Virus record (IMG/VR): IMGVR_UViG_3300009163_000019
Strand: one strand, 5' to 3'
Length of the DNA: 64,000 nucleotides
Source: a virus
Shown one piece after another: positions 4,770-63,271 of this stretch. Numbering within the stretch: the first letter of the stretch is position 1; every line of letters starts with the position of its first letter. A program made the translations under genes and the position numbers. The notes beneath the pieces are model-generated. The model had not been told where the DNA came from, searched no databases, and was given only the letters and a program-made list of their open reading frames with translations.

Positions 4770-6032
4770 TTATAGTATATTGCTACATTGATTATATCCT
4801 GTTATTCTATATACTTTTCCATTTACTGTAATATCTTGTGGACTAGATGTTATATTAGTTCCATTTAATGATAATACAGAAGGTTTCCAACTATTTGCCG
4901 TGTAAATTCCAGATCCATTATCGCATATAGGATTACTATCATAAAATTGAGGATATGCAGATCCTGAAGGTATAAATAATTCAGTACTTAATGAATTATA
5001 GAATACATCAGTTCTAAATATACAGGCTCCTAAATTAGTTCCATTACAACTTGTACCTGTGTATTTTATTATTTGTCCTGTTATAGTTAAATCGTCAGCT
5101 ATAGATCCAGAAGTTATTTCTCCTGTAACCTTGACATCACCAGATCCATTATTAAATCCATAAACTAATATTTTAGCTTGTATAATAGAATTAGAAGTTG
5201 ATGGTGTTACTGTTACAGTAGGAGTTTGTGTTACTGTTGGTGTTATAGTTATACTTGGCGTTATACTAGGGGTTATACTAACAGTTGTACTTGGTGTTTT
5301 ACTAACTGTCTTACTAGGTGTCTTACTAGGAGTTGTAGTTTTAGTTGGTGTTATACTAGGAGTAATACTCGGTGTTTTACTTGGTGTTACAGTAGGTGTT
5401 TGAGTAAGTCCTGGTGTTATAGAAATTGTTACACTTGGACTAGGAGACGCAGCTATTATTGTAGATAGTGTAAAATCAAAACTAGGATCTGCTACTAAAC
5501 ATACATAATCTTCATTTGTAAATGTAATAATTCCTTGTGCATATAAAACATTTCCTACATGAACATTATTATTAAATGTGTCTACTATATTACCATTACC
5601 ATCATCTATAATATTATAACTAGTTCCATCAGTAGAAGCAATATTAACTGTTCTTCTACTCATTTGTTCTCCAAACTGTCTTGATGGAATTGCAAAAAAT
5701 CCTATATTACTTCCAGTAGCAGAAGGAAAATATCGATTATCATCATCTAAACTACCCGATGCTCCTGTAGATTGTATAGAAGGATCCCAATAAGAAGCGG
5801 ATCCTATAATAGATCCAGTTATATAATTTTGATAATAAAGTTGCTTTATTACAGCATACTTATTTCTCTTAATAAAGGGTAACCCAGGAGAAGGTGAAAC
5901 TATATTCGTACCCCTATTAGTAGTTATTCCGTAGTCCAGTAAAGACTGACTCGCATAGGTAGCAGAATATTTTACTTTTATAGGAGCCGAAGATATATCC
6001 GATTTTTTTATGGTATTCTTCGATCTGCTCAT
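4770..6032 (-). CDS. Baseplate/tail-associated structural protein with a TPS-rich linker
   Basis: Has IIDDGNGNIVD..VGNVLYAQGII, a motif related to the neighbouring ORF, plus an ~85-aa TPS linker. Operon context. Confidence 0.55.
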   Translation of the reverse strand: MSRSKNTIKKSDISSAPIKVKYSATYASQSLLDYGITTNRGTNIVSPSPGLPFIKRNKYAVIKQLYYQNYITGSIIGSASYWDPSIQSTGASGSLDDDNRYFPSATGSNIGFFAIPSRQFGEQMSRRTVNIASTDGTSYNIIDDGNGNIVDTFNNNVHVGNVLYAQGIITFTNEDYVCLVADPSFDFTLSTIIAASPSPSVTISITPGLTQTPTVTPSKTPSITPSITPTKTTTPSKTPSKTVSKTPSTTVSITPSITPSITITPTVTQTPTVTVTPSTSNSIIQAKILVYGFNNGSGDVKVTGEITSGSIADDLTITGQIIKYTGTSCNGTNLGACIFRTDVFYNSLSTELFIPSGSAYPQFYDSNPICDNGSGIYTANSWKPSVLSLNGTNITSSPQDITVNGKVYRITGYNQCSNIL

Positions 6033-6038
6033 TTAATT

Positions 6039-7070
6039 TTACCAATCTAATTTTACTCTAATTAAAGCCTCTTTAGTAAAGTCTTTTGTCAAAGGTTTAG
6101 ATAATTTAGCTACTGCTACTAATTCATTATTATCATTATACATACCTACAGATGTTGGAAATGTCTGTGGACTATTAATAAAGTTTGAGTATATTAATGT
6201 ACCAGATCCTGATATAAATGAAGGATTGGTTGTATAATTATATTCTCCATTTTTAATTCTTACAAAAATATAATCAGAAGATATAGTTTCTTGAGAATTT
6301 AATTGGAAATAAGCGCCTCTATTAATTGCTTGGAAAATAAGTTCTTGATTTGCATTAGCCGCTTGAGCAGTTGCTGCAGTACTTAAAGTATATCCTAATC
6401 CACCTGCATTTGCCGGTAAGCTAATAGCCTTTGGATTTAAAACAATTAATCCAAGATCTGGGAGCATTAAACCATAACTACCTGAGGCAGTATATCCTTT
6501 AGCAGAAGCTCCTGATAATAGTGGACTATTTACAGCACTACCATTAGAACCTGAGATAATATCATAAACTCTTCCACCATCTACATAATTAACGATACTA
6601 ACATCATTAGAATTATCTGTAAGAGTTAAAACATTTGTTCCATTACTAAGTCTTAGATTAAAAGTACCAGGGAAAAGACTCTCTTTATACTTATTTCTAT
6701 CAACAGGAATTGCAATTAAATCAATTGAAGAGGTATTACCAGCTCCAAAATTTACAGCGCTTTCTGCATCTCCATAAATTAAATTTCTATACTGACCAAA
6801 AGTAATTCTTGTCGGAGTATTTGCTAAAACTAAATTATTAAGAGGAGCAGATCCTGATCCTAAAGCATGTCCGTAAGCAAATGAAAATTGTATAGAAGAA
6901 GTAGTTGCTGTTACTGGCGCATTATATACATCTAAGTAATTGCTTCCAGTATTTGCTGCTGATGCTGTATAAAATGAAGATAATATAGTAGCACCATTAC
7001 TCCAAGCCGGGGCTGTAACGGAATCAGATGATACTACAAAATCTGTTGGGTCTAATCTTGTAAATGACAT
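6039..7070 (-). CDS. Baseplate/tail-collar-like structural protein
   Basis: The C-terminal TSVGMYNDNNELVAVAKLSKP...IRVKLDW resembles the E/SVGL(F/Y)D..G.L(I/V)AVA motif of tail-collar/fibre-attachment domains. Confidence 0.55.
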   Translation of the reverse strand: MSFTRLDPTDFVVSSDSVTAPAWSNGATILSSFYTASAANTGSNYLDVYNAPVTATTSSIQFSFAYGHALGSGSAPLNNLVLANTPTRITFGQYRNLIYGDAESAVNFGAGNTSSIDLIAIPVDRNKYKESLFPGTFNLRLSNGTNVLTLTDNSNDVSIVNYVDGGRVYDIISGSNGSAVNSPLLSGASAKGYTASGSYGLMLPDLGLIVLNPKAISLPANAGGLGYTLSTAATAQAANANQELIFQAINRGAYFQLNSQETISSDYIFVRIKNGEYNYTTNPSFISGSGTLIYSNFINSPQTFPTSVGMYNDNNELVAVAKLSKPLTKDFTKEALIRVKLDW

Positions 7071-7781: not shown

Positions 7782-10700
7782 TTATTGTATTAAATTCTGC
7801 TGTTTTAAAGCTTTTACTGTATTACCAGCATTTGCTTGAACAACTTCATCTATATATTGAGGAAATAATAAACCATTTTCAACTAAAGTAGAATCTTTTG
7901 GATTATATCTAAGCATAACATTAGTTTCGTCAGGTAGATGTTTCCATACAACATACCTACACGCACGGAATGGTGAACCAGTAAAGGCATCTATAGGAAC
8001 TCCGGAACCAGAGGATAGAAGTGCTCCATCTATAGACCTGTCTACTTCAGCTATTAATCTAGATCCAGTAACGCCAGATCCTGTAAATATAATATTTTTT
8101 ATACTATATTCAAATCTTTCATCCCAACCAAGAGAGGATGTATTATATAGAGATATTCTATCTCCAACATTTAAAGTAAATGGAGTTATCACCCTTTCTA
8201 ATGGAGATGTACTCCAGTAATCATCAGAAGTTGAATTATATACCAATCCATAATCATAATAATATGCTATAGCCGAATCAAATACTATTTGTTTAGATTG
8301 AGATAAATAATATAAACAGTTTTGAGATGCACTAACATTAGTAGTTAAAATAGTAGTAGTAAAAGTTGTACCACCTCCGCCTCCTCCTCGTTGCTCAATG
8401 CCATCAATATATTTTGTACATGTCCGACTAAATCCAGAGTTTGACCATCTAGCATTTGGATCAGTTTCTAGACTACATCCACTACCTAATCCAGAGGGTG
8501 TTAATACACTTGTATCACTAGCAATTGTTGTTCCGTCCGATGTTTGCCCAGTATTAATACTTAATACTCTTTCTGTTAATGTTCCGCATGTACCATTTGA
8601 ACTCATAGCAGCCATAATATACACATAAACATCAAAAGTCACAGCTTGAGGAGTAGACGCTCCATTAGGATGGTATGAGGCACTTACGCCGGAAAAATAA
8701 ATAGATTCAGAACCATTGTCTTGTTCGCAAACATAGTATCCTACTCTCCAGTTACTAGATTTTAATTCAGGAGAATTAGGATCTATACCACCGCCGCTAC
8801 TACCTTGTATTATTATTGGTATTGGAGTATCTAAACTAAATGATTGTGTTGTAGTAGATCTAGAACCACTTACTTGATGTAGTATTGGTAAATATCTAAA
8901 TCCGCCTTCATATATTGTGGTAGTAGGATTATTTACTAGTTGCTGAGAAAATGGATTTCTTTCATCATATTCAAATAGGGAGATATTTGAAGTCTCTCCT
9001 GATTTATATATATTCTGAACAGAAAATATGTTATTATTTGCTTTAGTAAGATCTAATACATTTTGATTATTATCAATAACATATTTTATTTGTGCATTAG
9101 ATCTTTTCGGTAAAAACATAGATGATGAATAGATATCAACTAAATAAGCGTATTGATATTTTATCTTATCTATTGCAGCTGTTTTACCATAAGAATCATC
9201 TCCTACTGTATAAGTTGTATAAGTTGCACTCACAGTTTGTGATCCTTTATATCTAGGAAGTATAGATCTTTCTAAAAAGTAATTATAATCCTGAACATAA
9301 GCATATGGGCTCATAGGATTTGTATAATCCGCATAATTATTTATCTGTGAATTATTTAGAGATCCTGTTATTATATTAAAATTAACAGGCTTTGATTGAT
9401 CTGCCGTGTAGTCTAGATCTAATAAATAAAGAGACCTTACAGAACTAGTAACATTTTGATATAGAGCTCCTCTAGAAACAGTAACAACACCTGATGATGT
9501 TGCAGGAAGATTTGAATTTTCTGATTGATCAAAAGCATCTCCAGTAGTAACTACTATTTCTGATCCTGCTAATTCTCCTGTATATTGTTCATAGTTTTGA
9601 GAACTAGTATAAGCAACATTACCTAAAGGTGTAGTAATTAAGCCTGTCCAATAAGTAGATCCAGATAGCGCGCCTCCTGTAGATCCTTCTACATAAAGCA
9701 TATCTATAGATTGTGAATAGTTCATATTAAGACTCATGCTAGGCTCATATCTTGCATACTTATTCCTTTCTAGCATATGAGATTTTACAATTATACCTGT
9801 AGATAGATTTGCTCTAGCAGGTACAAAGTCTTTAATCATTTTGAATAAAGAGTTATTGTAAAATTTAATTAATCTTATATATTCCCAAACACTACTAGGT
9901 TGTGTATAGTTTGCAAAATAGGCATTACTTGCACTAACTAGTGGCGCATATGATGATGATTGTTGATATCCTGGGCTTCCTATTAATTGATTAATATCAA
10001 AAAATCCTTGAGATGCAGTTATATTTGTATTAATAGTATCTGCTGGTGAAAATCCTACTTCAATATTTGTACTATTAACTCTATGATCTTTATCATAAAA
10101 TTGTAAAGTAGCATAAGGTGAAAGTAATGATGAGGATAAAGCTAAGCTGCCAGATACATTCCCATTACTTCCAGTAGAAATATTTATTTTGTAATCCGTT
10201 GTATCTAAATCAAATGCGCCATCAACAGAATCAATTGGATTACCACCAAATTCTCTAACGGTTAAAATTTCTTCAGGAATACCAAAAGTACTGATTAGGG
10301 CTTTTATACCTCTTTGTGTACCTTTTGTTTTAAGTAAATACGGTAAGTTATGATATAATCTTTTATATAATTCATCTTGAATAGTAGCCGCAGGAAGTGT
10401 AGTTAAACTTGAAGTAACATAATTGGTTATAAGTTCAGATCCAGTTGGAGGCAATAATCCACCATCAGTATTAATACCAAACAACGTATAGTACAGGTTA
10501 TCAGATACATTTGAATTAGTATATAATTGCATTCCAAAACCCTTTAGAGCGTCAGAAACAATGTCTAATGATATACCAGTATCAGGATTATTAGTTGCAT
10601 TATATCGATTAGAAAGGTCTTTATAATATATCCAAATATTATCAAAATGCTGTCCTATCATATCTAGGAAAGTAATATATGGAGTATTACTAGAATCATC

Positions 10701-11987
10701 TAATAAATACTGCGGGATACTATTATGCAGTAAGTCTTTATTTGTGCTATCATAATAAGAAGCCGAGAATAGTAAAGATTGAGTTGTTGCTGTTGGAACA
10801 ATAGACTCACTTCCTAAAAAATTAGCGGCTTCTGATGAAGTTACTGAATATAATTGATATGGCTGAGTTGTTGTTGATTTAGGCCATGTCCAACTAGAAG
10901 AATTAAAATATAAAAAATATTCGTAGGTATCAAATTTTTGTATAATATTATTTATAGAAGACTCTATATATCCTATAGAAGACGATACTATTAGTTGATT
11001 TCCTGACCCACCAGTTATTGATTGTTGTTGTATTATTTGATTATTATAAGATTCTATTAATCCTAATTTATAAACAAAATTATTTACCCTTTCTGTAGCA
11101 CTTGAAAAATGAATAAAATTGCTAAAATTACTATAATCAACATTTATTTCGACAGACTTATCTTGATAATAACTAAGTAGTTTTTGATAAGAAGAACTTA
11201 TATTACTAGATAATAAATTATTATAATTATAATATGGCGTAGTTTGTCCATTTTTATTATTTATAACAACATTAAAATTTGGACCTCTTAAAGAATTTTC
11301 ATTTTGTGTAGATTCTGCTTGAACTTGAATATTTACATCAAAGCTAACAGATTCAGCTACTTTATCTACTATCCATAATTGAGTTTTTAAATCATAATCT
11401 GGAGATAATGGTGCATATAATTTAATTAAAAGATAACCGCCATCTTCGTCTTCTGTGTATGCTACATTGTCTGCAATTATTATTTCATTATTTCCAAAAT
11501 TAAGATAAAATACAGGATAATAATTTTTAGTTCCAATATATGCTTGATACTGATTAAATCCATTTTTAATATCGGAATTACTTAATACTTGAGAAGCTAA
11601 TTTTAATTCTGTTCTTGAAGTTGATATTTCTTTTATCCAAAAGAATCTGCCAAATGCAGAGTTAAATAATCTTTTATGGAAATGATACTGTATATTTAAA
11701 TTTCCTCTATTAAACCCTCTATTTTTTAAATCCGTTTCTGGATCTAATGTAAGACTGGGATAGGTATTATTTTTAGGATTAGCTGTTAAATATGGATAAT
11801 AATCTGAGGCATCATAATCAAAGTCTAATAATTGTTTATTTTCATCATATATATATAACTCTAAATAATCATTTGTTGCTCCAAATTGTGTATTAATATA
11901 ATCTGAAGTAACTAATTGTCTATCTAATGTAGATAAATTCTGTCTCTCTGTTCCTTGCCCTGCATATGTTATATTAACTAATTCCAT
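7782..11987 (-). CDS. Large baseplate wedge protein (T4 gp7 / P2 gpI-like core)
   Basis: Motifs LYHNLPYLLKTKGTQRGIKALISTFG and IKDFVPAR. Lies downstream of the gp25- and gp6-like genes. Confidence 0.65.
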   Translation of the reverse strand: MELVNITYAGQGTERQNLSTLDRQLVTSDYINTQFGATNDYLELYIYDENKQLLDFDYDASDYYPYLTANPKNNTYPSLTLDPETDLKNRGFNRGNLNIQYHFHKRLFNSAFGRFFWIKEISTSRTELKLASQVLSNSDIKNGFNQYQAYIGTKNYYPVFYLNFGNNEIIIADNVAYTEDEDGGYLLIKLYAPLSPDYDLKTQLWIVDKVAESVSFDVNIQVQAESTQNENSLRGPNFNVVINNKNGQTTPYYNYNNLLSSNISSSYQKLLSYYQDKSVEINVDYSNFSNFIHFSSATERVNNFVYKLGLIESYNNQIIQQQSITGGSGNQLIVSSSIGYIESSINNIIQKFDTYEYFLYFNSSSWTWPKSTTTQPYQLYSVTSSEAANFLGSESIVPTATTQSLLFSASYYDSTNKDLLHNSIPQYLLDDSSNTPYITFLDMIGQHFDNIWIYYKDLSNRYNATNNPDTGISLDIVSDALKGFGMQLYTNSNVSDNLYYTLFGINTDGGLLPPTGSELITNYVTSSLTTLPAATIQDELYKRLYHNLPYLLKTKGTQRGIKALISTFGIPEEILTVREFGGNPIDSVDGAFDLDTTDYKINISTGSNGNVSGSLALSSSLLSPYATLQFYDKDHRVNSTNIEVGFSPADTINTNITASQGFFDINQLIGSPGYQQSSSYAPLVSASNAYFANYTQPSSVWEYIRLIKFYNNSLFKMIKDFVPARANLSTGIIVKSHMLERNKYARYEPSMSLNMNYSQSIDMLYVEGSTGGALSGSTYWTGLITTPLGNVAYTSSQNYEQYTGELAGSEIVVTTGDAFDQSENSNLPATSSGVVTVSRGALYQNVTSSVRSLYLLDLDYTADQSKPVNFNIITGSLNNSQINNYADYTNPMSPYAYVQDYNYFLERSILPRYKGSQTVSATYTTYTVGDDSYGKTAAIDKIKYQYAYLVDIYSSSMFLPKRSNAQIKYVIDNNQNVLDLTKANNNIFSVQNIYKSGETSNISLFEYDERNPFSQQLVNNPTTTIYEGGFRYLPILHQVSGSRSTTTQSFSLDTPIPIIIQGSSGGGIDPNSPELKSSNWRVGYYVCEQDNGSESIYFSGVSASYHPNGASTPQAVTFDVYVYIMAAMSSNGTCGTLTERVLSINTGQTSDGTTIASDTSVLTPSGLGSGCSLETDPNARWSNSGFSRTCTKYIDGIEQRGGGGGGTTFTTTILTTNVSASQNCLYYLSQSKQIVFDSAIAYYYDYGLVYNSTSDDYWSTSPLERVITPFTLNVGDRISLYNTSSLGWDERFEYSIKNIIFTGSGVTGSRLIAEVDRSIDGALLSSGSGVPIDAFTGSPFRACRYVVWKHLPDETNVMLRYNPKDSTLVENGLLFPQYIDEVVQANAGNTVKALKQQNLIQ

Positions 11988-12325
11988 TACATTAATTGAT
12001 TAATATTTGTGAATGTCTGATTAAGATCTAATAATTGTTGGCGTAGTGAATTAATTTCTTCTATTAAAGCCTGTTTTTCTGCATCTATTACAGATCCTCC
12101 TATATATTGTTGACTTCTTTCTACTAAATATATATGAGAATTTATGTCTCCTTCAACAGGTATATTAAAAAATAATTCATCATAATATCTAAAAAAATCA
12201 TCTACTGATATAGCTGCTTGAGTGTCTACTACTACAGGAGTTATTAATTCTGTAAAACGAGTATCAATAGCTTTTGAATAAGTATTAAGACCATAAATTT
12301 GTTTTATTAAATCTACATTTGCCAT
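11987..12325 (-). CDS. Hypothetical baseplate-region protein with a C-terminal coiled coil
   Basis: ORF track; TAATG overlaps on both sides. Confidence 0.5.
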   Translation of the reverse strand: MANVDLIKQIYGLNTYSKAIDTRFTELITPVVVDTQAAISVDDFFRYYDELFFNIPVEGDINSHIYLVERSQQYIGGSVIDAEKQALIEEINSLRQQLLDLNQTFTNINQLM

Positions 12326-13446
12326 TATCTAACTACTTTAAAAATTAAATCATTATCTATATCATAAGATTCACCATCAGACATTACTGTTCTTATAAGT
12401 ACTTTATAATATCTTTCTGGTTCAAGGCCTGACATATATAAGTAAAAATAACTATTTGTTCCATCGCAACTTATTTTAGTAAACGATGTATCAAAATCTA
12501 TAACCATATCATTGTTTTTAGCATCTTGAATAGCCCAATAAGAAGTTTCAGGAAGTGCTTTATTTGTTGTATAAAAAGAAGATGTTGTAAATGTTCTAGG
12601 AGGGTATTTATCCCTCGCATTAATTATCATTTTATATTTACCAGTTCCATATTTGTAATTAGATATATTATTACCTAATGTTATTACATTATCAGAATTA
12701 TCAATAACTGATAAAGTACCAGTATTATAAGAACTATCGTCCCACTTCATTTCAATAGTAGGTGGATAAATAGTATGTGTATCTACTGAAAAGAAACTTA
12801 ACGCTATGTAACTATTTGGATTTTGTTCTATTGAATTTGGGTGTTTTATAATAAATCCATAATTAGGAAAATTATTAAACCAAGCATCTACTATAGGTTG
12901 AACATTTACATTTATATCTTTATTATCTTTATAACTAAAAGATTGTGTGTAAACTGTGCCTTCCCAAGAACCTCCACCAGGAGTTAAATAATAAGAACCT
13001 GAAACCCCAAAAGAGTTATATCCCCAGTTATTACTTGCAGATGTAAAAGATCCAGTACTATACCAACAACAACCATTTCTAGTTTCTGGTACATCCGCGG
13101 CTTTTCCCGTTCCCATAGTCCAAGAATCATGAACTTGGGCAATTTGTAAACTATAACTAGTATTTAAGTTTTCAGCATTTGCTAAATATAATCTTAAATT
13201 TGCTTGCCAAGAGCCAGTTCTAAATGATTTAAGTGTTTGTAAATCATTATTATCAAATAATATTAATGATCTTCTTAAGTCATCACTTAATAAAGGTTCT
13301 GTTGGAACAGATTCTACAAAATAATTTAAAGGTGTAGATGAATTTTTTACCGATACCTCAAGTATTTCATCTAATCCAGCGTTTAAAGCAGGATGACTAG
13401 AATATATAGAAGCGTCAGCTGAGGCAAATATTTTATATACGGCCAT
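12325..13446 (-). CDS. Structural protein with a DNRLRE-like beta-sandwich domain
   Basis: Pattern ASADASIYS..P.LNAG...RRSLILFD...ANLRLY...W..G.G...NYGFIIK...FFS...P.IEM.W. Confidence 0.55.
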   Translation of the reverse strand: MAVYKIFASADASIYSSHPALNAGLDEILEVSVKNSSTPLNYFVESVPTEPLLSDDLRRSLILFDNNDLQTLKSFRTGSWQANLRLYLANAENLNTSYSLQIAQVHDSWTMGTGKAADVPETRNGCCWYSTGSFTSASNNWGYNSFGVSGSYYLTPGGGSWEGTVYTQSFSYKDNKDINVNVQPIVDAWFNNFPNYGFIIKHPNSIEQNPNSYIALSFFSVDTHTIYPPTIEMKWDDSSYNTGTLSVIDNSDNVITLGNNISNYKYGTGKYKMIINARDKYPPRTFTTSSFYTTNKALPETSYWAIQDAKNNDMVIDFDTSFTKISCDGTNSYFYLYMSGLEPERYYKVLIRTVMSDGESYDIDNDLIFKVVR

Positions 13447-30683: not shown

Positions 30684-30685
30684 AA

Positions 30686-48851: not shown

Positions 48852-49076
48852 ATGGCAAGGCTAAATCTTAAACAAGTACTTTCTAATTTACAATACAATA
48901 ATACTAATTCTCAATTAGTACTAAGCGGTAGTAATGCTAATAGGCCTGACTTTGTTATATCTGGTTCTACATTTATAACATCGACTGGAAGCAAAACAGG
49001 TTCATTAACTATTCAAAATATAGATTCTTTTGGAGATTCTGGAAGCTTCTTTACTATGGATTTAGGAGACTACTAA
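48852..49076 (+). CDS. Small structural protein
   Basis: ORF track; SGS/TGS-rich; ends in DLGDY. Confidence 0.5.
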   Translation: MARLNLKQVLSNLQYNNTNSQLVLSGSNANRPDFVISGSTFITSTGSKTGSLTIQNIDSFGDSGSFFTMDLGDY

Positions 49077-50509: not shown

Positions 50510-51835
50510 ATGGCAACTTGGAAAAAAGTCGTAGTTTCTGGCAGTAGTGCCGAACTAGCTGCTTTAAAAGTAGATAATCTAACATCAGGACAGGTAGTAA
50601 TTGGTGGTGGATCCGCAGGTAACTTGTCTACAACAGCTATAAATGGTACAGGAAATATAGTAGCAACAACTGGAGCTACTAATTTAGTCCATTCTGGTTC
50701 ATTTAGTGGATCTTTTAAAGGAGACGGTTCTGCATTAAGTGGAGTTGCCGCTAGTTTTCCTGTAATTGAAAAAACCAACATAGTAACTGCTGATAAATTC
50801 TTCATTCAGAATAGTGTAGGAGCTTCAAGTGAATTTATTACTTATGGTAACTTATTAACTGATTTAGCTGGTACTAATTTAGTAACTGAATCTAATGATA
50901 GTTTAACTTTAGCATCTACTATTACTGGTCTTACCTCGGTAAGTGCTACTGGCTTTACTGGTAGCTTTACTGGTTCTCTTATTGGAGCTTTAACAGGTAC
51001 TGCATCTTTTGCAAATAATGCAACAAGTGCTTCGTTTGCCTCTCAAGCAGCTAATGCAACTACAGCATCATATGTTGTAACTGCTCAAACAGCTTCTTTT
51101 GTCACAACTGCCCAAACTGCTTCGTTTATCACATCCTCTAATGTATTTGGTCCTAATGGTGCTAATACAATATTGAGTTCATCATTTGCTTTAACAGCAT
51201 CATTTGCTCAAAATGGAGGCACTGTTGCTAATGCCTTAACATTTGGATCTGGTTTATCAGGTAGCTCTGCAACATTTAACGGCGGAACTGCAGTTACAGT
51301 ATCTGTATCTGGAGCGGTTTCTTTAACTACTAATAATCTCCCTAAATGGACGGGTACTGGATTTGCAAATAGTAATATCTCAGATACAGGTACCGCAATT
51401 TCTGTTAGCTCAAATATTCCTGTAACAGTCAATAGTAATTTAACAGTAACAGGTGACTTAACAGTTGCTGGTACTGCTAGCTTTCAAAATACACAAAATT
51501 TATTAATTGGCGATAGATTTGCTGCACTTGCTTCTGGATCTACAACATTAACTGACGGCGGTATTATTGTTGTATCTTCAACTACAGCTAATGGAATGTC
51601 AGGTTCTGCATTCTTTCTAGAGTCACTTTCATCAGGATTATATGGTCGTTGGGCAGTAGCTGCTAATGTAAATGTTTCATCATCAACAGTATCAGCCGAT
51701 GAATATGCAGTAACAGCAAAAATATCACAGGCATCAAATCCAGTAGATGCAACACCTCCAACATGGGGTAGTTCAACAAATGGTATGGGTAATATGTGGA
51801 TTACAAATGCTGGTGACATTTATATTTATTCGTAA
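50510..51835 (+). CDS. Fibre-like structural protein (MATWKKVVVSGS type)
   Basis: S/T/A/G-rich with ASF/ASY repeats and NLTVTGDLTVAGT. Confidence 0.6.
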   Translation: MATWKKVVVSGSSAELAALKVDNLTSGQVVIGGGSAGNLSTTAINGTGNIVATTGATNLVHSGSFSGSFKGDGSALSGVAASFPVIEKTNIVTADKFFIQNSVGASSEFITYGNLLTDLAGTNLVTESNDSLTLASTITGLTSVSATGFTGSFTGSLIGALTGTASFANNATSASFASQAANATTASYVVTAQTASFVTTAQTASFITSSNVFGPNGANTILSSSFALTASFAQNGGTVANALTFGSGLSGSSATFNGGTAVTVSVSGAVSLTTNNLPKWTGTGFANSNISDTGTAISVSSNIPVTVNSNLTVTGDLTVAGTASFQNTQNLLIGDRFAALASGSTTLTDGGIIVVSSTTANGMSGSAFFLESLSSGLYGRWAVAANVNVSSSTVSADEYAVTAKISQASNPVDATPPTWGSSTNGMGNMWITNAGDIYIYS

Positions 51836-52399: not shown

Positions 52400-52969
52400 A
52401 TGCCAAATTGGAGAAAAGTTGTCGTATCTGGCTCAGATGCGAGTTTAAATTCATTATATGTACTAACTAGTGTAACTGCTAGTGTATTCTCAGGTTCACA
52501 TACAGGTTCTTTATTTGGAACTGCGAGTTGGGCTCAAAATGCTGTAACAGCATCATACATTTTAAACGCGGTAAGTTCATCATTTGCAACTAGAGCTATA
52601 TCTGCATCTTATGCAGATGACTTTACAGTAAGAAACTTATTAAACGTTGATTCTGCGTCATTAGATTATCAACAAAATTTAGCTGTAGCAACAGGATCAT
52701 TTCAAACAATAGTTAGTGTAGCTACAGGTTCTTATAGATGTGCTTTCTTCGATTATGTAACATTTAGTAGTTCAATAGTCAGAGCAGGAACCGTCGTTTC
52801 AACTTGGAGTGGTTCAGCAACAGAATATTATGAAAACTTTACAGCTGATTTGGGTGGTAGCACATCTATTGTTATATTACAAACAGCAATAAGTGCAAGC
52901 AATATAGTATTACAAGCAGGAATTTCAGGTTCCGCTTGGTCAGTTCGTTCATTAGTAAGATTATTATAA
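52400..52969 (+). CDS. Short fibre/adaptor protein (MPNWRKVVVSGS type)
   Basis: N-terminus shared with 50510; C-terminal domain shared with 54447. Confidence 0.6.
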   Translation: MPNWRKVVVSGSDASLNSLYVLTSVTASVFSGSHTGSLFGTASWAQNAVTASYILNAVSSSFATRAISASYADDFTVRNLLNVDSASLDYQQNLAVATGSFQTIVSVATGSYRCAFFDYVTFSSSIVRAGTVVSTWSGSATEYYENFTADLGGSTSIVILQTAISASNIVLQAGISGSAWSVRSLVRLL

Positions 52970-53672: not shown

Positions 53673-53673
53673 T

Positions 53674-54446: not shown

Positions 54447-56105
54447 ATGGCAAACGAATTTAAAGTAAAAAAAGGCCTAGTCGTAAATGGATCAGGCTCA
54501 GTAATATTAGATATACAAGGATCACAAGGTCAATTATTTTCAGTAACAGACCAACTATCCGGATCCTTATTTTCAGTAAACGATATCTCAGGTATTCCTA
54601 TATTAGCGGTATCATCAGATGATTCTGTTAGATTAGGTACATTTAGTAGAGAAGCCATTAAAGTATCCGGTTCTAATGCAGTTATCACAGGTTCATTTAC
54701 CGGTTCATTAAGCGGTTCATTGTTTGGCACTGCATCGTGGGCTAACAATGCATTAACAGCATCTTTTTTTGGAGGAAGCGTAACTAGTGCTTCATATGCC
54801 TCTAGTTCTACAAGTGCTTCGTTTGCCTCTACAGCATCTTTAGCATTAAATTTTATTACTAGTTCTGTAACATCTGCAAGTTTTGCTACAACTGCAAGTT
54901 CAGCAGATTCATTTAATGTCAGAACAAGTTTAACTGCCTCTAATTTACTAGTAAGTGGAACAATAACTGCTCAAACACTATTAGTACAAACTATTACTTC
55001 TTCTGTTGAATTTATTACTGGGTCAAGTAAATTTGGTAGTTTATTAACAGATACACATCAATTTACAGGGTCTGTTTCTATAAGTAGTAGTTTAAATATA
55101 ACCGGACAATTAACAGCAACAGGAATTACTGGCTCTCATTTTGGAACAAGTTCTTGGGCAATTAATGCTGCCACTGCATCTTATTTTTTAACTAGTTCTG
55201 TAACTAATGCAACTAGTGCTAGTTATGCAGCTACTTCAAGTTGGGCATTAAATTTTTTAACATCTTCTGTAACTAGTGCCTCTCTAGCAGCAACAGCATC
55301 CTATTTTCTAACTAGTTCAGTAACTAATGCAACTAGTGCCTCTCTAGCAGCAACAGCATCCTATTTTCTAACTAGTTCAGTAACTAGTGCGTCATATGCT
55401 CAAACAGCGTCTTATCATTTTACCAGTTCGGTTACTAATGCAACTAGTGCCTCTCTAGCAGCAACAGCATCATACTTTATAACTAGTTCTGTTACTAGCG
55501 CATCATTTGCATCAACTGCATCTTATTTTATAACCAGCTCAGTAACTAATGCTACTAGTGCCTCTCTAGCAGCAACAGCATCATACTTTATAACTAGTTC
55601 AGTAACTAATGCTACTAGTGCATCATTTGCAGCAACAGCATCTTACTTTATTACTAGTTCAGTAACTTCTGCAAGTTATGCTGCAACAGCTTCTTACTTT
55701 ATTACTAGTTCTGTTACTAGCGCATCATTTGCAGCAACATCATCATATGCAAATGCTACATCAACTGTAGGTTATACTATAGGTGGTTCACAAATATATT
55801 ATGCGTCTGTTTTATCATCTACTAGTCCTGTAAATCAAAATATATTTACTAATAATACAGGATCATTTACTTCTGGATTTTATAACTATACTATATCTAG
55901 TGGTTCAAATGCTAGATCTGGTCAAATATCATCAGTATGGTCAGTAAATACTGTGTCATACAACGACTATTCAACAACTGATATTGGAGATACCTCTACA
56001 GTAACAGCATCAGTAGTAGTTGTAACAGGACAAGTACAATTTAATGTTCAAGTTCCTTCCTCAACAACAGGTTGGAGAATTAAAGCAACAGCAACTTATT
56101 TATAA
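54447..56105 (+). CDS. Fibre protein (MANEF type) with S/A/T tandem repeats
   Basis: Repeats of TASYF(L/I)TSSVT(NAT)SAS and modules shared with other fibres. Confidence 0.65.
   Translation: MANEFKVKKGLVVNGSGSVILDIQGSQGQLFSVTDQLSGSLFSVNDISGIPILAVSSDDSVRLGTFSREAIKVSGSNAVITGSFTGSLSGSLFGTASWANNALTASFFGGSVTSASYASSSTSASFASTASLALNFITSSVTSASFATTASSADSFNVRTSLTASNLLVSGTITAQTLLVQTITSSVEFITGSSKFGSLLTDTHQFTGSVSISSSLNITGQLTATGITGSHFGTSSWAINAATASYFLTSSVTNATSASYAATSSWALNFLTSSVTSASLAATASYFLTSSVTNATSASLAATASYFLTSSVTSASYAQTASYHFTSSVTNATSASLAATASYFITSSVTSASFASTASYFITSSVTNATSASLAATASYFITSSVTNATSASFAATASYFITSSVTSASYAATASYFITSSVTSASFAATSSYANATSTVGYTIGGSQIYYASVLSSTSPVNQNIFTNNTGSFTSGFYNYTISSGSNARSGQISSVWSVNTVSYNDYSTTDIGDTSTVTASVVVVTGQVQFNVQVPSSTTGWRIKATATYL
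55171..55750 (+). repeat. 51/60-bp coding tandem repeat (~10 units)
   Basis: actagtgcctctctagcagcaacagcatc recurs. Confidence 0.9.
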
Positions 56106-56124: not shown

Positions 56125-56334
56125 ATGTATCAATATCAAGTACAGTGTCAGTTTATACCTGGCCTAGACACTATTTGGGTAGCTAGATTAACACTTGAAG
56201 ATCCAATTTATGAATATGTTCATGAAGGTGAGGCAATTGCAAAAGCTGCTGAACTTCAAGCTGCTGATGAAACAGGAAGACAATATCGTGTAGTAGATAT
56301 TTCTATTGTTCAAGAAGAATTACCAACAGAATAA
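56125..56334 (+). CDS. Small hypothetical protein
   Basis: ORF track. Confidence 0.55.
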   Translation: MYQYQVQCQFIPGLDTIWVARLTLEDPIYEYVHEGEAIAKAAELQAADETGRQYRVVDISIVQEELPTE

Positions 56335-56335
56335 T

Positions 56336-57004: not shown

Positions 57005-57013
57005 TTATAATAT

Positions 57014-57688: not shown

Positions 57689-57691
57689 CAA

Positions 57692-58729: not shown

Positions 58730-59764
58730 ATGCCAAACGAATTTGTAGCCAGAAATGGTGTCATTGCTTTAAATAATAGCACTGTAACAGGATCATTAAA
58801 TGTTACAAGTGGAATTACAGGATCTCTATTTGGAACGGCATCTTGGGCAGTATCATCTTCTTTTTCATTAACTGCATCTTTCGCTCTTAATGCAGGTGCA
58901 TCAAGTCCAACTTCATTTACACTTAGTCAAACTACGCCTTCTACTACCTGGACTGTTAATCACAATTTAAATAATGCGTATCCTTCAATTACTATTTATG
59001 ACAATAATGGATACGTAATAATCCCTAAAAATATATTAGCAAATAATGCAAATCAAACTACAGTAACTTTTTCTTATCCTGCTACAGGATATGCAACAGT
59101 AGTAGTTGCAGGAACCACAGTTACTACAGCATCTTATGCACTTACGGCGGCCACAGCATCATATGTAGTAAACTCAATTAGTGCATCATTTGCAGCAACT
59201 GCAAGTTCTGCTGATTTATTTAACGTACGAACAAGTTTAACTGCATCTAATTTATTAGTAAGCGGAACAATTACCGCACAAACCCTAGTAGTTCAAACAA
59301 TTACATCTTCTGTAAGCTGGATTACTGGATCAACAAAATTTGGTAATTTATCAACAAATACGCATCAATTTACAGGTAGTATAACAATAACAGGATCACT
59401 AACAATAGGTAGTGGTAGTATAACAGGATCTAGGATAAATCCTAGAACCGCAACAACAGCTTCAGTAGGTATATATACACCAAATATAGATGTAGCTGAT
59501 GTTTTTACTATTACTGGACAAACAGCATCTTTAGCATTTAATAATCCTTCAGGTAGTCCAGTCAATGGCCAAAGAATGATTATTAGAATTGAAGATGATG
59601 GAGTTGGTGCAAGAGCTTTAAACTTCACAGGATCTCAATACAGAGCATCAACAGAATTAGCATTCCCAGCATCATCATCTCTAAGCAAAACTTTATACTT
59701 AGGTTTTATATATAATTCAACAGATACTAAGTGGGATTTATTAGCTAAAATTGATAATTTTTAA
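58730..59764 (+). CDS. Fibre/adaptor protein (MPNEF type)
   Basis: WTVNHNLN..YP module, shared THQFTGS module, C-terminal NGQRMIIRI...YN....WD domain. Confidence 0.65.
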   Translation: MPNEFVARNGVIALNNSTVTGSLNVTSGITGSLFGTASWAVSSSFSLTASFALNAGASSPTSFTLSQTTPSTTWTVNHNLNNAYPSITIYDNNGYVIIPKNILANNANQTTVTFSYPATGYATVVVAGTTVTTASYALTAATASYVVNSISASFAATASSADLFNVRTSLTASNLLVSGTITAQTLVVQTITSSVSWITGSTKFGNLSTNTHQFTGSITITGSLTIGSGSITGSRINPRTATTASVGIYTPNIDVADVFTITGQTASLAFNNPSGSPVNGQRMIIRIEDDGVGARALNFTGSQYRASTELAFPASSSLSKTLYLGFIYNSTDTKWDLLAKIDNF

Positions 59765-59770: not shown

Positions 59771-61072
59771 ATGGGAAGTGCAATTTTTAGAAATTATCTT
59801 ACATCTAGTATCTGGATAGCTCCATCAGGATCAGCTATCACAGCTTCATGCTGGGGTGGTGGAGGTGGAGGTCAAGATACTGACATAGAAATACCAGCAA
59901 ATGGTGTTGGTGGTGATGGTGGATCATACGCAAGAAAAATATTAACAGTTGTATCAGGAAGTTCTTATATAGTAAAAGTTGGTGCGGGTGGACCGGCAAC
60001 AAGTAATGGATTTACGTCACCTGGAGGTGATAGTTGGTTTAGTGGATCAACTATAGTTCGTGCAAAAGGTGGTAATAGTGCCGCAACTAATATAGGAGAT
60101 GTTACATATACAGGAGGGGCTGCAGGAATCGGTGGTGGTGGTGGAGCAGGATCAACAGGAAATGGAGGAGGCGGTGGTGGACTTACAGGAGGAACAGGAA
60201 CCGCAGTAAGTGGAGGTAACGGAGGAACTACGCCAGGAACCAATGCAAATGGAAGAACAGGAAGTTTATATGGTGGTGGTGGATCAGGAGGAGCAACGAC
60301 TGGAATTACAGACTATGGTGGAGCTGCAGGAGCAGAAGGACTAGTTATATTATCGTATCCTGGAAGTTCATCTCTAGAGCAGTTTATTTCAACTACTACT
60401 TGGGTTTGCCCACAAGGAGTATCTTTTGTTACAGCTTCTTGTTGGGGAGGCGGAGGTAGTGGAGGAGACGCTGATGTTAGGGCATCAGCAACAGATGGTC
60501 GTGCAGGAGGTGCGGGAGGTGGTGGAGCTTTCGCTAGAAAAGTAGTTCCAGTAATGCCAGGCACTTCATATACAGTTACAGTAGGTGGACCAAACCAAGA
60601 TAGTTGGTTTGTTTCTACAACTACTGTTTTAGCTAGATCAGGAAGTAATGGACAGAGTGCAACTTGTGGACCAACTATATGTACAGGTGGAACAGGTCGT
60701 GCGGGTGGATCTGCAGCAGGATCAATAGGAGATATAACATATTCTGGAGGATCTGGAGGTAGTACCGGAGGTGGCGGCGGCGGCGCTGCAGGTCTTATAA
60801 ATACAGGTTCAAATGGTGCTAGTGGAGGAGGAGGAGGAATAGGAGGAGGCCCTTATGCTGGAAAAGGTGGAGATGGAGATATAGGACTTGATCAAAATGG
60901 ATTACCAGGAGGTTATTTTGGAGCAGGTGGAGGTGGAGGTCCATTATTTGATAATGGAGACGGAACTTTTTCAGCAAATTCTGGCGGCGCCGGGGCACAA
61001 GGTCTAGTAATATTAGAATACACACCAATAATACAATCAGCAGTAGCAGGAGCATTTTTTAGTATTTTATAA
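59771..61072 (+). CDS. Glycine-rich adhesin-like protein with two tandem domains
   Basis: W..P.G....TASCWGGGG...ARK......G.SY.V.VG...GA.GLVIL.Y occurs twice. Confidence 0.7.
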   Translation: MGSAIFRNYLTSSIWIAPSGSAITASCWGGGGGGQDTDIEIPANGVGGDGGSYARKILTVVSGSSYIVKVGAGGPATSNGFTSPGGDSWFSGSTIVRAKGGNSAATNIGDVTYTGGAAGIGGGGGAGSTGNGGGGGGLTGGTGTAVSGGNGGTTPGTNANGRTGSLYGGGGSGGATTGITDYGGAAGAEGLVILSYPGSSSLEQFISTTTWVCPQGVSFVTASCWGGGGSGGDADVRASATDGRAGGAGGGGAFARKVVPVMPGTSYTVTVGGPNQDSWFVSTTTVLARSGSNGQSATCGPTICTGGTGRAGGSAAGSIGDITYSGGSGGSTGGGGGGAAGLINTGSNGASGGGGGIGGGPYAGKGGDGDIGLDQNGLPGGYFGAGGGGGPLFDNGDGTFSANSGGAGAQGLVILEYTPIIQSAVAGAFFSIL

Positions 61073-61099
61073 AATAAGTATAATTAATAATAATATCAA

Positions 61100-63271
61100 A
61101 TGGTAATAGATAGCGGTACAGCAACAAGTTCATTTTATGTTAGTGGAACACTATCAGTAACTGATGGCATTACAGGTTCATTATTTGGAACCTCTTCATG
61201 GGCTACCTCAGCTTCTTTTGCAGTAACTGCATCTAATAGTATAACCGCTTCATTTGCACTTAACGCTGGAGGTGCTACAGGAGATAAAATTGTTACAGGT
61301 AGTATAACAGCTTCTGTTAACGTAACAGGCGCGGCATTTAGAATTGATAGTGGATCTACTTCATTTGTTTATGTAAATAATATTGGTAATTTAGGTATAG
61401 GTACAACAGTGCCTGCTGCAAAACTTCAAGTATCAGGAACTGCTAACCTTTTAAATATTAGAGGATCAGGAAGCTCTGCTACACAATCACTATTCACAGT
61501 TGATGGAGCCGCAGGACGTCTATTTAGTGTAAATGACTCTCTTTCCGGATCCTTATTCTCGGTTAATACAATAGCGGGTTTACCGGTTATAGAAGCGTTT
61601 TCAGATAATACTGTCAGAATAGGTCAGTATGGACAAAAAGCATTATTTGTTTCGCAATCTAGAGTTGGTATAGGAACTGAAATACCAACCGCTTTATTAC
61701 ATATTACGGGTTCTACAGGAAATATTTTTGAACTTGATGGATCTGGATCTATTAATGCGTTAATTGTTAGTTCATCAGGACGTATAGGTATAGGTACTGA
61801 TACTCCTGCAGGTAGATTTGATATTTCATATCCTGGAAATCTTAATGATCCGACTATTCTTTTAGGAGCAGATGATACAGGAGGAACATCTAGAACAAAT
61901 AATACAACAAAAGTAGCTAGAATAGGAGTGGCTCACTATAGTAGTAGTGCAACTGCGTCTGCTATATTAATAGCTGATTCAAATGCTACTGATAATAGAG
62001 TATTTATTGGAGGAGGATCGTCTTATCTAAATGCTGCTACTCAAATTTTATTTTATACAGGTCCAACAACAGCTTCTTTAACAGGAACAGAAAAATTAAG
62101 AATTAGTGGTAGTGGACAAATAATAGTAAGTAGTTCTGTTTCAATATCTGGATCACTAACGGTAACTACTGGATCAATTAAAGGAAACGTTGAAACTAGT
62201 AGATTAATCTTTGGAACAGTTAATTCAAATCCATCTGTAAATCAAAATGATTTTGCTCCTGTAGGATGGGATGACGCAGATCCAGCAAAATCAACAACTA
62301 TAGATATTTCTGGAAGTGCATCTATAAAAATAACTGGATTAGGTGGAGGAGTACATGGCCGAATTGCAGTTTTAAGAAATGCGTCTCCTGATAGACTTAT
62401 AATATTAGAAGATAATGCAACATCTTCTTTATCTGGAAATAGATTTGATTTTAGAAATCCTGTATTTTTAATACCAAATGGAACTATACAATTACAGTAT
62501 GATTCAACATCTTCAAAATGGGAACCAATAGGATCTTCAGAAGGTATTGGATTCCAAGAATTTTTTGATCAGTATGAAGAATTTTTAGGATTCAATATAG
62601 TATCTTCTAGTAGTACTGATACAGCAGGTCTTTGGACAGGAGTAGCTTCCGGAGCTTTTAGTTCTATTGGTACTAGTAGCTATTTACAAAATACAACAGA
62701 AAGACCTCTAGGTATTTACGATATGAATGTAGGTAGTACAGCAGCGGGTCGTGCACATATAGGAACAAGAACATCAGCATCAATACAACCAGGTTATGGG
62801 CAAGGAATAATGCTAACAAGATTAGCTTTACAGCAACCCGCAACCGCTACAGAAAACTTTCAAGTTTTTACAGGTTGGCATGATTCAATAACTGGTGGCG
62901 GTACTACATTTGGGTTTCCTAGAACTGGAATTTATTGGATGTATAATAGTGGATCAGGTGCTGCTGGTAGTAACTGGCAGGCTGTTGCCGCATCAGCAAG
63001 TTTATCTTCATCAGCTACTGTAGGACCTACTGTTGATAGTAACTATGTATGGCTTGGCATTTATGTAAATTCTCAATGGAATAGAGGAACTTGGTTCTAT
63101 TCAACAGATACTGTTACCTGGTTTATAGCTCAAGATACAGCACCAAGTGGAAACTCTATTACAGGTTCTCAAATTGGATTTGGTGTAACTGCAGTCAAAG
63201 CAATAGGAACAACAGGAAGATTAATTACAATAGATGCCCTAGCACATAGGTATGATATAAATAGAAACTAA
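61100..63271 (+). CDS. Fibre protein with (N/R)(L/V/I)GIGT..P repeats
   Basis: GNLGIGTTVPAAKLQV, RVGIGTEIPTALLHI, GRIGIGTDTP. Confidence 0.7.
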   Translation: MVIDSGTATSSFYVSGTLSVTDGITGSLFGTSSWATSASFAVTASNSITASFALNAGGATGDKIVTGSITASVNVTGAAFRIDSGSTSFVYVNNIGNLGIGTTVPAAKLQVSGTANLLNIRGSGSSATQSLFTVDGAAGRLFSVNDSLSGSLFSVNTIAGLPVIEAFSDNTVRIGQYGQKALFVSQSRVGIGTEIPTALLHITGSTGNIFELDGSGSINALIVSSSGRIGIGTDTPAGRFDISYPGNLNDPTILLGADDTGGTSRTNNTTKVARIGVAHYSSSATASAILIADSNATDNRVFIGGGSSYLNAATQILFYTGPTTASLTGTEKLRISGSGQIIVSSSVSISGSLTVTTGSIKGNVETSRLIFGTVNSNPSVNQNDFAPVGWDDADPAKSTTIDISGSASIKITGLGGGVHGRIAVLRNASPDRLIILEDNATSSLSGNRFDFRNPVFLIPNGTIQLQYDSTSSKWEPIGSSEGIGFQEFFDQYEEFLGFNIVSSSSTDTAGLWTGVASGAFSSIGTSSYLQNTTERPLGIYDMNVGSTAAGRAHIGTRTSASIQPGYGQGIMLTRLALQQPATATENFQVFTGWHDSITGGGTTFGFPRTGIYWMYNSGSGAAGSNWQAVAASASLSSSATVGPTVDSNYVWLGIYVNSQWNRGTWFYSTDTVTWFIAQDTAPSGNSITGSQIGFGVTAVKAIGTTGRLITIDALAHRYDINRN

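Follow-up and report, generated by a model that had tools for sequence, protein, structure and literature searches.

Introduction

Mycobacteriophages O-glycosylate their virions through phage-encoded glycosyltransferases (Freeman et al. 2023, as summarised in PMC12619734), the glycans having been mapped by mass spectrometry to extensions at the C-termini of the subunits that form capsid and tail tube. Cytoplasmic hyperglycosylation of Ser, not Thr, by TibC and AAH occurs in the beta-helical adhesin repeats of TibA and AIDA-I (PMC4358343, PMC3835316), while the GtfA/GtfB system of serine-rich repeat (SRR) proteins joins a conserved glycosyltransferase (GT) pair to variable extension GTs (PMC6973325). 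Here we compare with these systems a stretch of 64,000 nucleotides (the window; IMG/VR record IMGVR_UViG_3300009163_000019) from an uncultured T4-like water phage. A first-pass annotation of this stretch had noted frequent [ST]-[GAS]-S tripeptides in unrelated outer virion proteins and had proposed that they form a glycosylation sequon rather than a structural repeat.

Results

An [ST]-[GAS]-S excess on outer virion proteins

Composition-corrected counts in the window gave 197 motifs in the 13 open reading frames (ORFs) of the fibre block versus 63.3 expected (observed/expected, O/E, 3.1), and 64 versus 23.0 in the eight ORFs for baseplate, major capsid (MCP) and neck proteins (O/E 2.8). The remaining 48 ORFs held seven where 15.1 were expected, in agreement with the scarcity that had been judged by eye in primase, TerL, sigma and head-internal proteins. 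The excess on the outer proteins of this phage and its relatives, about threefold, is confirmed as real, and the counts support a concentration of the motif in outer, clade-specific parts of the virion.

An artefact of composition or low complexity might be suspected from the S/T/G/A content of the motif-rich proteins (30-60% of residues), but the excess outlasted global shuffles as well as local shuffles within 6-, 10- or 20-residue windows, the latter leaving z = 18 for the fibre set and z = 8 for the non-fibre set even at six residues. With the three residue sets placed in the five other possible orders, O/E was about 1 (0.8-2.1), the most S/T-rich protein was depleted in the motif, and the motif Ser was drawn from both Ser codon families with a usage that mirrors background. 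Together these results rule out the artefact, to which we assign a negligible probability.

The third position is occupied by Ser and not Thr, as [ST]-[GAS]-T was found at an O/E of 0.8-1.1, and Gly or Ala is preferred over Ser at position 2. Hydrophobic residues flank the motif at position -1 and directly after it in 50-67% of cases versus a background of 30-34%. An excess of N-x-[ST] sequons was absent from both fibres (O/E 0.95) and non-fibre proteins (O/E 0.81). We read the tripeptide as the centre of a longer motif specific to the clade, consisting of a hydrophobic residue, Ser/Thr, Gly/Ala (less often Ser), Ser, and a second hydrophobic residue.

Baseplate, capsid and neck proteins

The features outside the fibre block are as follows (motifs observed versus expected).

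4770..6032, minus strand: structural protein; short TPS tract, motif in modest excess, 7 versus 4.1
6039..7070, minus strand: baseplate-module protein, motif-rich; 9 versus 2.5, z 4.2
7782..11987, minus strand: 1401-aa outer baseplate protein, motif-rich; 27 versus 7.9, z 7.4
12325..13446, minus strand: baseplate-module protein, moderately motif-rich; 5 versus 1.9
43958..44290, plus strand: insertion domain of a Gp23-type MCP (ORF 43406-45133; PF07068, E 5e-75)
45895..47091, plus strand: gp13-like neck protein (phrog_211); weak excess, 4 versus 1.4, local z 1.25

Every example quoted in the first-pass annotation was found in the gene named there, including VSGSLALSSSLL, FTGSGVTGSRL and VSASYH in 7782..11987, STGSFTSAS in 12325..13446, and FSASI, TSASA, YTAST, TSSLSGSL, ATGSG and FSGST in the capsid insertion. 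The outer proteins listed there as motif-rich proved to be so in the case of 6039, 7782, 12325, the capsid insertion and the fibres, but the neck protein shows only the weak excess given above.

Orthologues of 6039..7070 are also enriched (5 versus 1.7 expected in Flavobacterium phage immuto and 9 versus 2.2 in Microcystis phage Mel-JY01), as are those of 12325..13446 (7 versus 1.4 and 6 versus 1.3, respectively). The window's gp6-like wedge is not enriched (3 versus 2.2). The motifs of 7782..11987 are without periodicity, and 22 of its 27 sites are common to at least one of three orthologues of 46-56% identity. Across this protein and its orthologues the excess consists of shared sites, with unique sites numbering 5-12 per protein where chance would give 7-8.

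All eight motifs of the MCP lie inside the insertion (residues 185-295), where 1.65 are expected. In 78 capsid sequences, comprising the window's own and those of 77 relatives, the insertion carried 4-9 motifs and the rest of the protein 0-3, this latter number being 0 or 1 in 76 of the 78. Relatives down to 51% identity have the insertion sites at largely equivalent positions, and at several sites the third Ser hardly varies. In an AF2 model of moderate confidence the insertion is a beta-sandwich (pLDDT 62-83) whose motifs are distributed over strands, strand ends and loops, and not confined to one structural context.

Fibre block

The motif-rich features of the fibre block, all on the plus strand, are the following.

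48852..49076, plus strand: small protein, motif-rich; 5 versus 0.85
49135..50454, plus strand: mosaic tail fibre; 27 versus 5.6
50510..51835, plus strand: tail fibre paralogue with a module in common with 52400; 18 versus 7.9
52400..52969, plus strand: short fibre protein with the shared module; 15 versus 3.5
54447..56105, plus strand: fibre with long hexad arrays (T-A-S-aromatic-A-x); 56 versus 20.9
58730..59764, plus strand: fibre paralogue with a galactose-binding-like domain (PF23623, 26 bits, under the cut-off of 27); 21 versus 4.5
59771..61072, plus strand: glycine-rich (30% Gly) fibre-associated protein (PF21722); 10 versus 4.7
61100..63271, plus strand: 723-aa fibre; 33 versus 8.7

The mosaic fibre 49135..50454 carries two conserved modules, ITGSLFGTASWAxNAxTASY and FITGSxxFG..NTHxFTGS, and 70-96% of 90 homologues preserve the sites in these modules. 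Conservation among homologues of this fibre is higher at motif residues (0.55) than at the remaining S/T residues (0.41), and 120 homologues, when pooled, gave an O/E of 3.6. Modules are common to six of the window's fibres, 40-45% of the fibre matches represent duplicated contexts, and 104-116 of the 197 are distinct contexts. Inter-motif gaps peak at exactly six residues (43 of 164), the sequence pattern being T/A/S/hydrophobic with period 6, and a 111-nt tandem repeat was located by TRF at 55265-55674 within 54447..56105. The hexad tracts were unstructured in a poor AF2 monomer model of the fibre, as expected for intertwined trimers. No match of the window's fibres to Pfam repeats, PF05658 included, was found at E values up to 5, and neither a PDB sequence search nor any Pfam family yielded a match that explains the motif.

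Fibres share their residue specificity with baseplate proteins 7782, 6039 and 12325 and with the capsid insertion, none of which has detectable homology to them; the earlier description of the motif-bearing proteins as unrelated is accurate to this extent, but does not extend to the six module-sharing fibres. In S-SKS1, an unrelated cyanophage, the sole module-sharing protein is enriched 2.5-fold in the motif, and a search of this phage for GTs returned no GT2 match and one sub-threshold GT1 match only. The beta-rich fibres and baseplate of phage T4 show no excess (23 observed versus 26.2 expected, 0.88), and therefore beta folds of this kind do not show it as a rule.

The motif's concentration on outer proteins of aquatic phages, together with the regular S/T arrays that we infer on one face and that can be likened to the Thr-x-Thr of ice-binding beta-solenoids, would fit another surface function for unmodified exposed hydroxyl pairs, such as weak binding of glycans or water or the provision of an uncharged, non-sticky surface. 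A demand of general surface chemistry, however, would explain neither the preference for Ser rather than Thr at position 3 nor the fixed residue order, and we consider this reading improbable.

A candidate structural element

We favour the reading, at a probability of roughly 0.5, that the motif is a structural strand-edge or turn element of the lineage's outer-virion beta modules. The data fit such an element because about 40% of fibre matches are module or period-6 copies and most of the excess lies at conserved positions, and because the enriched S-SKS1 module protein belongs to a phage with no GT2 match. The two hydroxyl residues would point to the same side of a short strand, or of the junction between a strand and a turn, with the small middle residue and both hydrophobic flanks on the opposite side. 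In the trimeric fibre shafts the motif forms period-6 arrays (T-A/G-S-aromatic-A-x) and moves along with mosaic modules that are copied inside the genome and swapped among phages; in the baseplate proteins and capsid insertion it occurs singly, where orthologues conserve its position. The original contrast between sequon and structural repeat survives in part: the excess does not stem from composition and its specificity is common to non-homologous outer proteins, but part of the fibre signal consists of period-6 arrays and paralogous modules.

Several observations count against a structural role. The same sharp residue rule applies in domains without mutual detectable homology; T4 lacks the excess, the capsid motifs occupy mixed structural contexts, and no Pfam family or solved structure explains the motif; and a GT4-like pair is conserved in relatives, heading a sugar island in immuto.

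GT60 and a mucin-like virion protein

Two further genes lie at the left edge of the window.

3..755, minus strand: edge-truncated GT60 polypeptide GlcNAc-transferase-like gene (PF11397, E 4.5e-58)
783..4748, minus strand: mucin-like virion protein (1321 aa; TPS[IV] repeats), adjoining the GT60 gene

Characterised GT60 family members act on polypeptides, and both the strong PF11397 match and the location of this gene, the only GT in the window, within the baseplate module would suit an enzyme with [ST]-[GAS]-S as its sequon. The adjoining protein, which contains 99 TPS tripeptides and 12-nt tandem repeats and shares phrog_15511 with 4770..6032, is nevertheless depleted about sevenfold in the motif (3 observed versus 20.9 expected). 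Across relatives GT60 tracks TP[ST]-repeat proteins instead: the window, G001 and G003 have both, G002, Mel-JY01, RM378 and LR756508 have neither, and immuto has no GT60 and a single protein with 10 TP[ST] copies. GT60 genes are present in G004. As G002, immuto and Mel-JY01, a complete relative among them, retain the [ST]-[GAS]-S excess without GT60, the motif is independent of this enzyme; the proposed comparison of GT content with the motif thus revealed no link to the window's own GT. A role for the motif as GT60 sequon is largely refuted and, in our estimation, highly unlikely.

A GT4-like pair in motif-rich relatives

Motif excess was measured in relatives G001-G003, immuto and Mel-JY01, all of which carry a GT4-like pair, and is weaker in Rhodothermus phage RM378. 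The pair, known from the near-complete genomes of relatives (G001-G004, immuto and Mel-JY01), consists of adjacent tandem genes of about 481 and 436 aa (PF00534) in G001-G004 and immuto, and of 302 and 455 aa in Mel-JY01, where the first gene is apparently split. The immuto pair stands at the head of a sugar island of five GTs, two sugar aminotransferases, a methyltransferase, an acetyltransferase and an epimerase, in whose annotation no flippase, polymerase, priming transferase or export genes appear. LR756508, a huge relative at the same capsid distance as Mel-JY01, has a single GT4 only and a weak excess (15 versus 7.3; capsid 1 versus 1.1), and a Ser-rich structural protein of Mel-JY01 adjoins a 1227-aa GT4 + FkbM gene. 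These results support the conclusion that the phage lineage encodes glycosyltransferases.

The presence of the pair in motif-rich relatives and of an immuto island without annotated export genes makes it possible, if doubtful, that a cytoplasmic system for virion O-glycosylation uses the motif as its acceptor sequon, in which case the GT4-like pair would prime the exposed Ser and the variable downstream island extend the glycan. Glycans may then coat the fibres, outer baseplate and capsid insertion. An excess that depends on order and residue, spans outer proteins without homology to one another and is lacking in T4 is consistent with a sequon, as are the co-occurrence of excess and pair, the weak excess in LR756508 and the gene neighbourhood in Mel-JY01. 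Precedents exist in the Ser-only O-glycosylation of beta-helix repeats by TibC on TibA (PMC4358343) and in the conserved pair and variable extension GTs of GtfA/GtfB (PMC6973325). However, GT matches and capsid-clade matches in the phage collection fall in the same records, with LR756511 (partial capsid match, no GT match) as the exception, so that the association is confined to one clade and the link between pair and motif is inseparable from shared ancestry. In addition, the pair matches generic GT4 models only, without GtfA/GtfB hallmarks, and does not adjoin structural genes in G002; turnover of the motif sites is not elevated, as for conserved positions; and the sugar island could instead act on DNA or host glycans.

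Discussion

As a structural element alone, the motif would be a useful and so far uncatalogued marker of outer-virion modules in a clade of abundant, poorly annotated myoviruses from fresh and sea water, in which Pfam and PHROG leave the majority of baseplate and fibre proteins unnamed. A sequon, if true, would represent the first virion glycosylation code to be defined at the sequence level among tailed phages other than actinobacteriophages. It would then matter for how hosts are recognised, for grazing and immune evasion, and for the unexplained glycan islands that aquatic phage genomes commonly carry. Tentatively, the whole aquatic T4-like clade, with hosts from Flavobacterium to Microcystis and Rhodothermus, might O-glycosylate the Ser of hydrophobic-[ST]-[GA]-S-hydrophobic through the GT4 pair and a swappable island, with a GT60/mucin module layered on in some members. 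The question is directly testable, as immuto, Mel-JY01 and RM378 show the excess and have cultured hosts.

Among known systems, GT60 mucin-type O-GlcNAc initiation (PF11397) resembles this locus in the placement of a PF11397 gene beside a Thr/Pro/Ser repeat protein. The likeness concerns the TPS repeats, unlike [ST]-[GAS]-S, which is depleted in the TPS protein and persists in relatives without GT60. Period 6, a hydrophobic position, small residues and S/T recall the left-handed beta-helix hexapeptide and the YadA head repeat (PF05658), but the window's fibres lack PF05658, some mosaic fibre homologues carry it in a different module (YSHAEG), and the AF2 monomer does not predict a hexad fold.

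With TibC/AAH the phage motif shares a candidate Ser-not-Thr acceptor within repeats, although their acceptor contexts, N-S-G-G and T-S-A-A, differ from [ST]-[GA]-S (PMC4358343, PMC3835316); the GT9-type heptosyltransferase PF01075, as well as GT41 and GT-D, is absent from G001-G004. The phage pair resembles GtfA/GtfB as a conserved two-protein GT4-type pair followed by variable extension GTs, and GtfA/GtfB acceptors are rich in S-A-S and T-A-S, resembling the phage motif (PMC6973325). Unlike GtfA/GtfB, the phage pair is without DUF1975 and, in Pfam and NCBIfam scans, matched generic GT4 models and no NCBIfam GtfA/GtfB model. SRR regions are disordered and their acceptors are long Ser-x dipeptide repeats, while the phage motifs lie in aromatic hexads or singly in folded domains. 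Compared with the mycobacteriophage glycans, the candidate sites here are internal and spread over fibres, baseplate and a capsid insertion (residues 185-295); like the mycobacteriophages, this lineage has glycosyltransferases of its own and outer structural proteins as their candidate targets.

Gene content of the window

The window is part of a T4-like myovirus of low GC content (~31%); a megablast search of the phage collection with 20 kb of it returned no close DNA-level match, and IMG/VR holds many relatives with capsid identities of 64-86%. Its major capsid protein (MCP) is of the Gp23 type (PF07068, E 5e-75) with a fold match to T4 gp23/gp24, and TerL, portal, prohead protease, primase, gp6- and gp25-like baseplate wedges and a gp13-like neck protein are also encoded. 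The longest capsid ORF starts at 43406, 24 codons upstream of the methionine at which most relatives begin (MANLVQSLL), and the true start is probably 43478. Further features are as follows.

45209-45895, + strand: PhoH-like gene (phrog_170, E 1e-61), between the MCP gene and the neck gene
59771-61072, + strand: Gly-rich protein, 30% glycine (Gly_rich_2, PF21722; also phrog_863, 'tail fiber assembly')
52971-54384 and 56306-58420, + strand: five paralogous proteins of ~230 aa, phrog_24074/8510 being common to all
2896-4542, + strand: 548-aa ORF antisense to a TPS-repeat gene, most likely a low-complexity-repeat artefact and not a gene

The five paralogues, which occur in alternation with the fibres, may be interchangeable receptor-binding tips; a test of one of them identified a concanavalin-A-like lectin/glucanase domain (PF13385, E 1.5e-25).

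The tripeptide excess in outer virion proteins follows one residue rule

The first-pass annotation had noticed by eye that the tripeptide [ST]-[GAS]-S is frequent in outer virion proteins. For each of 70 called ORFs, we set the motif count against the number expected from composition and against shuffled sequences, shuffled either globally or within 20-residue windows. This revealed an excess stronger than a reading by eye could have known, with 197 motifs observed versus 63.3 expected in the 13 ORFs of the fibre block and 64 versus 23.0 in the eight baseplate, capsid and neck ORFs (the non-fibre set), compared with 7 versus 15.1 in the remaining 48 ORFs. The excess is weak in the ~230-aa paralogues (12 versus 6.7), and the most S/T-rich protein of all, the TPS-repeat protein encoded at 783-4748, has 3 motifs versus 20.9 expected. 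Correction for composition left the excess in place under both global shuffles and shuffles inside 6-residue windows (z-scores of 18.7 in the fibre block and 8 in the non-fibre set), and a composition artefact is effectively refuted.

The order of the residues matters, as five other orderings of the same residue sets gave observed over expected (O/E) ratios of 0.8-2.1. Position 1 is restricted to S or T. At position 2, G and A are favoured in the fibres (O/E 4.3-4.8) and, in the non-fibre set, G at 4.6 and A at 2.3, with S less favoured (1.7-2.2); position 3 takes S (2.9-3.3) and not T (0.8-1.1). The rule is identical when fibres and non-fibre proteins are taken separately. Codons at all three positions are as mixed as in the background (TCN and AGY for Ser, mixed for Thr, Gly and Ala), which places the selection at the level of the protein sequence rather than of a DNA word; a DNA-level cause was rejected. 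The N-x-[ST] sequon was likewise rejected, not being enriched in the same proteins.

Fibre motifs are periodic and lie in shared modules

The tripeptide is preceded by a hydrophobic residue in 50-56% of cases and followed by one in 49-67%, against a background of 30-34%. In the fibres it forms part of a period-6 pattern (T/S, A/G, S, hydrophobic, A, x), and exactly 6 residues make up 43 of the 164 gaps separating successive motifs; no periodicity was seen in the non-fibre proteins. Six fibres have modules in common, such as ITGSLFGTASWAxNAxTASY and FITGSxxFG..NTHxFTGS, and the fibre at 54447 contains a 111-nt tandem repeat. When fibre hits with 5-6 of 12 flanking residues identical were treated as duplicates, 104-116 of the 197 contexts remained distinct, still above the 63 expected. 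The description of the motif-bearing proteins as unrelated therefore does not suit these fibres, and it holds for the baseplate proteins 7782, 6039 and 12325 and for the capsid insertion (43958-44290), which showed no BLAST or HMM similarity to the fibres or to one another; an HMM of the capsid insertion detected no relative of this domain among the other structural proteins.

Three fibres (49135-50454, 54447-56105 and 58730-59764, all + strand) carry the conserved module [ST]GS[ST][KR]FG..[ND]THxFTGS with an invariant His, and the module also occurs in a structural protein of Microcystis phage Mel-JY01. Speculatively, this His might bind metal on the trimer axis, much as the His boxes at the tip of T4 gp37 do. 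A YadA-head repeat was rejected as the source of the motif, since PF05658 matches in homologues sit in a different module.

Neither two of the fibres nor a 91-sequence fibre profile produced a meaningful match in sequence searches of the PDB, and the ESM Atlas gave weak leads only, to a pectate-lyase-like beta-helix (TM 0.44-0.45). An AF2 model of a fibre monomer was confident at both ends only, with the hexad tracts as low-confidence coil, as would be expected for intertwined trimers. The AF2 capsid model (60-sequence alignment) was poor overall (pLDDT 51), with a moderately confident insertion (pLDDT 62-83) folded as a beta-sandwich; three of its eight motifs fall in strands, two at strand ends and three in loops.

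Our leading reading, to which we give a probability of roughly one half, is that the motif is a clade-specific structural element with a pair of hydroxyl groups on the same face of a strand edge or turn, arrayed in fibre shafts and inherited with mosaic modules. The first-pass annotation had preferred a glycosylation sequon to a structural repeat. We regard a sequon as the less likely of the two; the period of 6 and the shared modules of the fibres fit the structural reading, and the sequon draws real circumstantial support from the action of one residue rule across unrelated domains and from T4, where there is no motif excess.

Motif sites are old and restricted to one T4-like clade

Table. 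Motif counts (observed versus expected) in the relatives and T4
Phage; capsid identity to the window; motif
T4; distant (Gp23 family); outer structural proteins 23 vs 26.2, O/E 0.88; gp23 none
G001, G002, G003 (complete IMG/VR relatives); within the 64-86% of the IMG/VR set; excess present
Flavobacterium phage immuto (vB_FspM_immuto, host Flavobacterium sp. LMO8); 56%; orthologues 25 vs 9.4
Microcystis phage Mel-JY01; 51%; orthologues 38 vs 11.1
LR756508 (484 kb); 51%; orthologues 15 vs 7.3; capsid 1 vs 1.1
Rhodothermus phage RM378; 36%; genome-wide 115 vs 69.9; several ORFs at O/E 4-5

As the excess is present in these relatives and absent from T4, it is a trait of a single deep T4-like clade and not generic to beta-rich phage fibres. 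No baseplate orthologue was found in LR756511, and S-SKS1 made a poor control, since its high-scoring proteins are mostly poly-Ser linkers or other repeats.

The capsid insertion (~120 residues) has 4-9 motifs in each of 78 sequences (the window and 77 relatives), and the other ~430 capsid residues have 0 or 1 in 76 of the 78 and 2-3 in the remaining two. At several insertion sites the third Ser is invariant or almost so. The excess in the insertion is about three-fold in distant relatives (3 versus 0.88 in immuto, 4 versus 1.34 in Mel-JY01), where most of the motifs occupy homologous positions; none is present in the gp23 insertion of T4. For the fibre at 49135, motif sites in conserved modules persist in 70-96% of 90 homologues; conservation is higher at motif residues than at other S/T residues, and 120 pooled homologues give an O/E of 3.6. 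Of the 27 sites in the 1401-aa baseplate protein, 22 recur in at least one of three orthologues (46-56% identity), and the 5-12 sites unique to one orthologue are near the chance expectation, so the excess is old and positional and does not reflect fast turnover.

GT60 accompanies mucin-like proteins and is decoupled from the motif

The sole glycosyltransferase (GT) in the window is a truncated GT60 (PF11397, E 4.5e-58), directly downstream of the TPS-repeat gene.

3-755, - strand: truncated GT60
783-4748, - strand: mucin-like protein of 1321 aa with 99 TPS tripeptides in TPS[IV] units; 12-nt tandem repeats at 1409-4495

The two look like a candidate mucin-type O-glycosylation pair. GT60 and TP[ST]-repeat proteins are both present in the window, G001 and G003, and both are missing from G002 (CheckV 100% complete), Mel-JY01, RM378 and LR756508, so that they are jointly present or absent over eight genomes with one partial case, immuto, which has no GT60 and a single protein with 10 TP[ST] copies. 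GT60 genes are also present in G004, another relative. As G002, immuto and Mel-JY01 retain the [ST][GAS]S excess without GT60, GT60 goes with the mucin-like proteins and is independent of the motif, and its candidacy as the enzyme of the motif is effectively refuted.

A GT4-like gene pair co-occurs with the motif

Tandem GT4-like genes (~481 and ~436 aa) are found in all near-complete clade genomes checked. The pair is conserved among the freshwater members of the clade, and the thermophilic RM378 keeps the first GT.

G002, 28956-31722: tandem GT4-like pair, ~481 and ~436 aa
RM378, 9165-11893: conserved first GT and a 425-aa neighbour without detectable family

Only generic GT4 matches were obtained for the pair, with no DUF1975 or GtfA/GtfB signatures, and GT9, GT41 and GT-D families were not found in four relatives. 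The immuto pair stands at the head of an island that also encodes three further GTs, two sugar aminotransferases, a methyltransferase, an acetyltransferase and an epimerase; the annotation of the island lists neither a flippase nor a polymerase nor a priming transferase. In Mel-JY01 (PP395634.1), the segment 3065-8009 encodes a Ser-rich, fibre-like structural protein (24 motifs versus 7.5 expected), directly followed by a 1227-aa gene with a GT4 domain (E 2e-15) and an FkbM methyltransferase annotation.

The conserved pair and, in immuto, its place at the head of an island without annotated export genes lend circumstantial support to a sequon, as does the weaker excess in LR756508, which has a single GT4. 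However, first-GT records in the phage collection are the capsid-clade records, except for a partial capsid hit, LR756511, without a GT hit; the link between pair and motif therefore rests on one clade and is inseparable from common descent. The association of the motif with the GT4-like pair was confirmed within this one clade only.

Comparison with known glycosylation systems

A sequon would have precedents in known systems, namely glycosylation restricted to Ser in beta-helix repeats (PMC4358343) and conserved GT pairs accompanied by extension enzymes that vary (PMC6973325).
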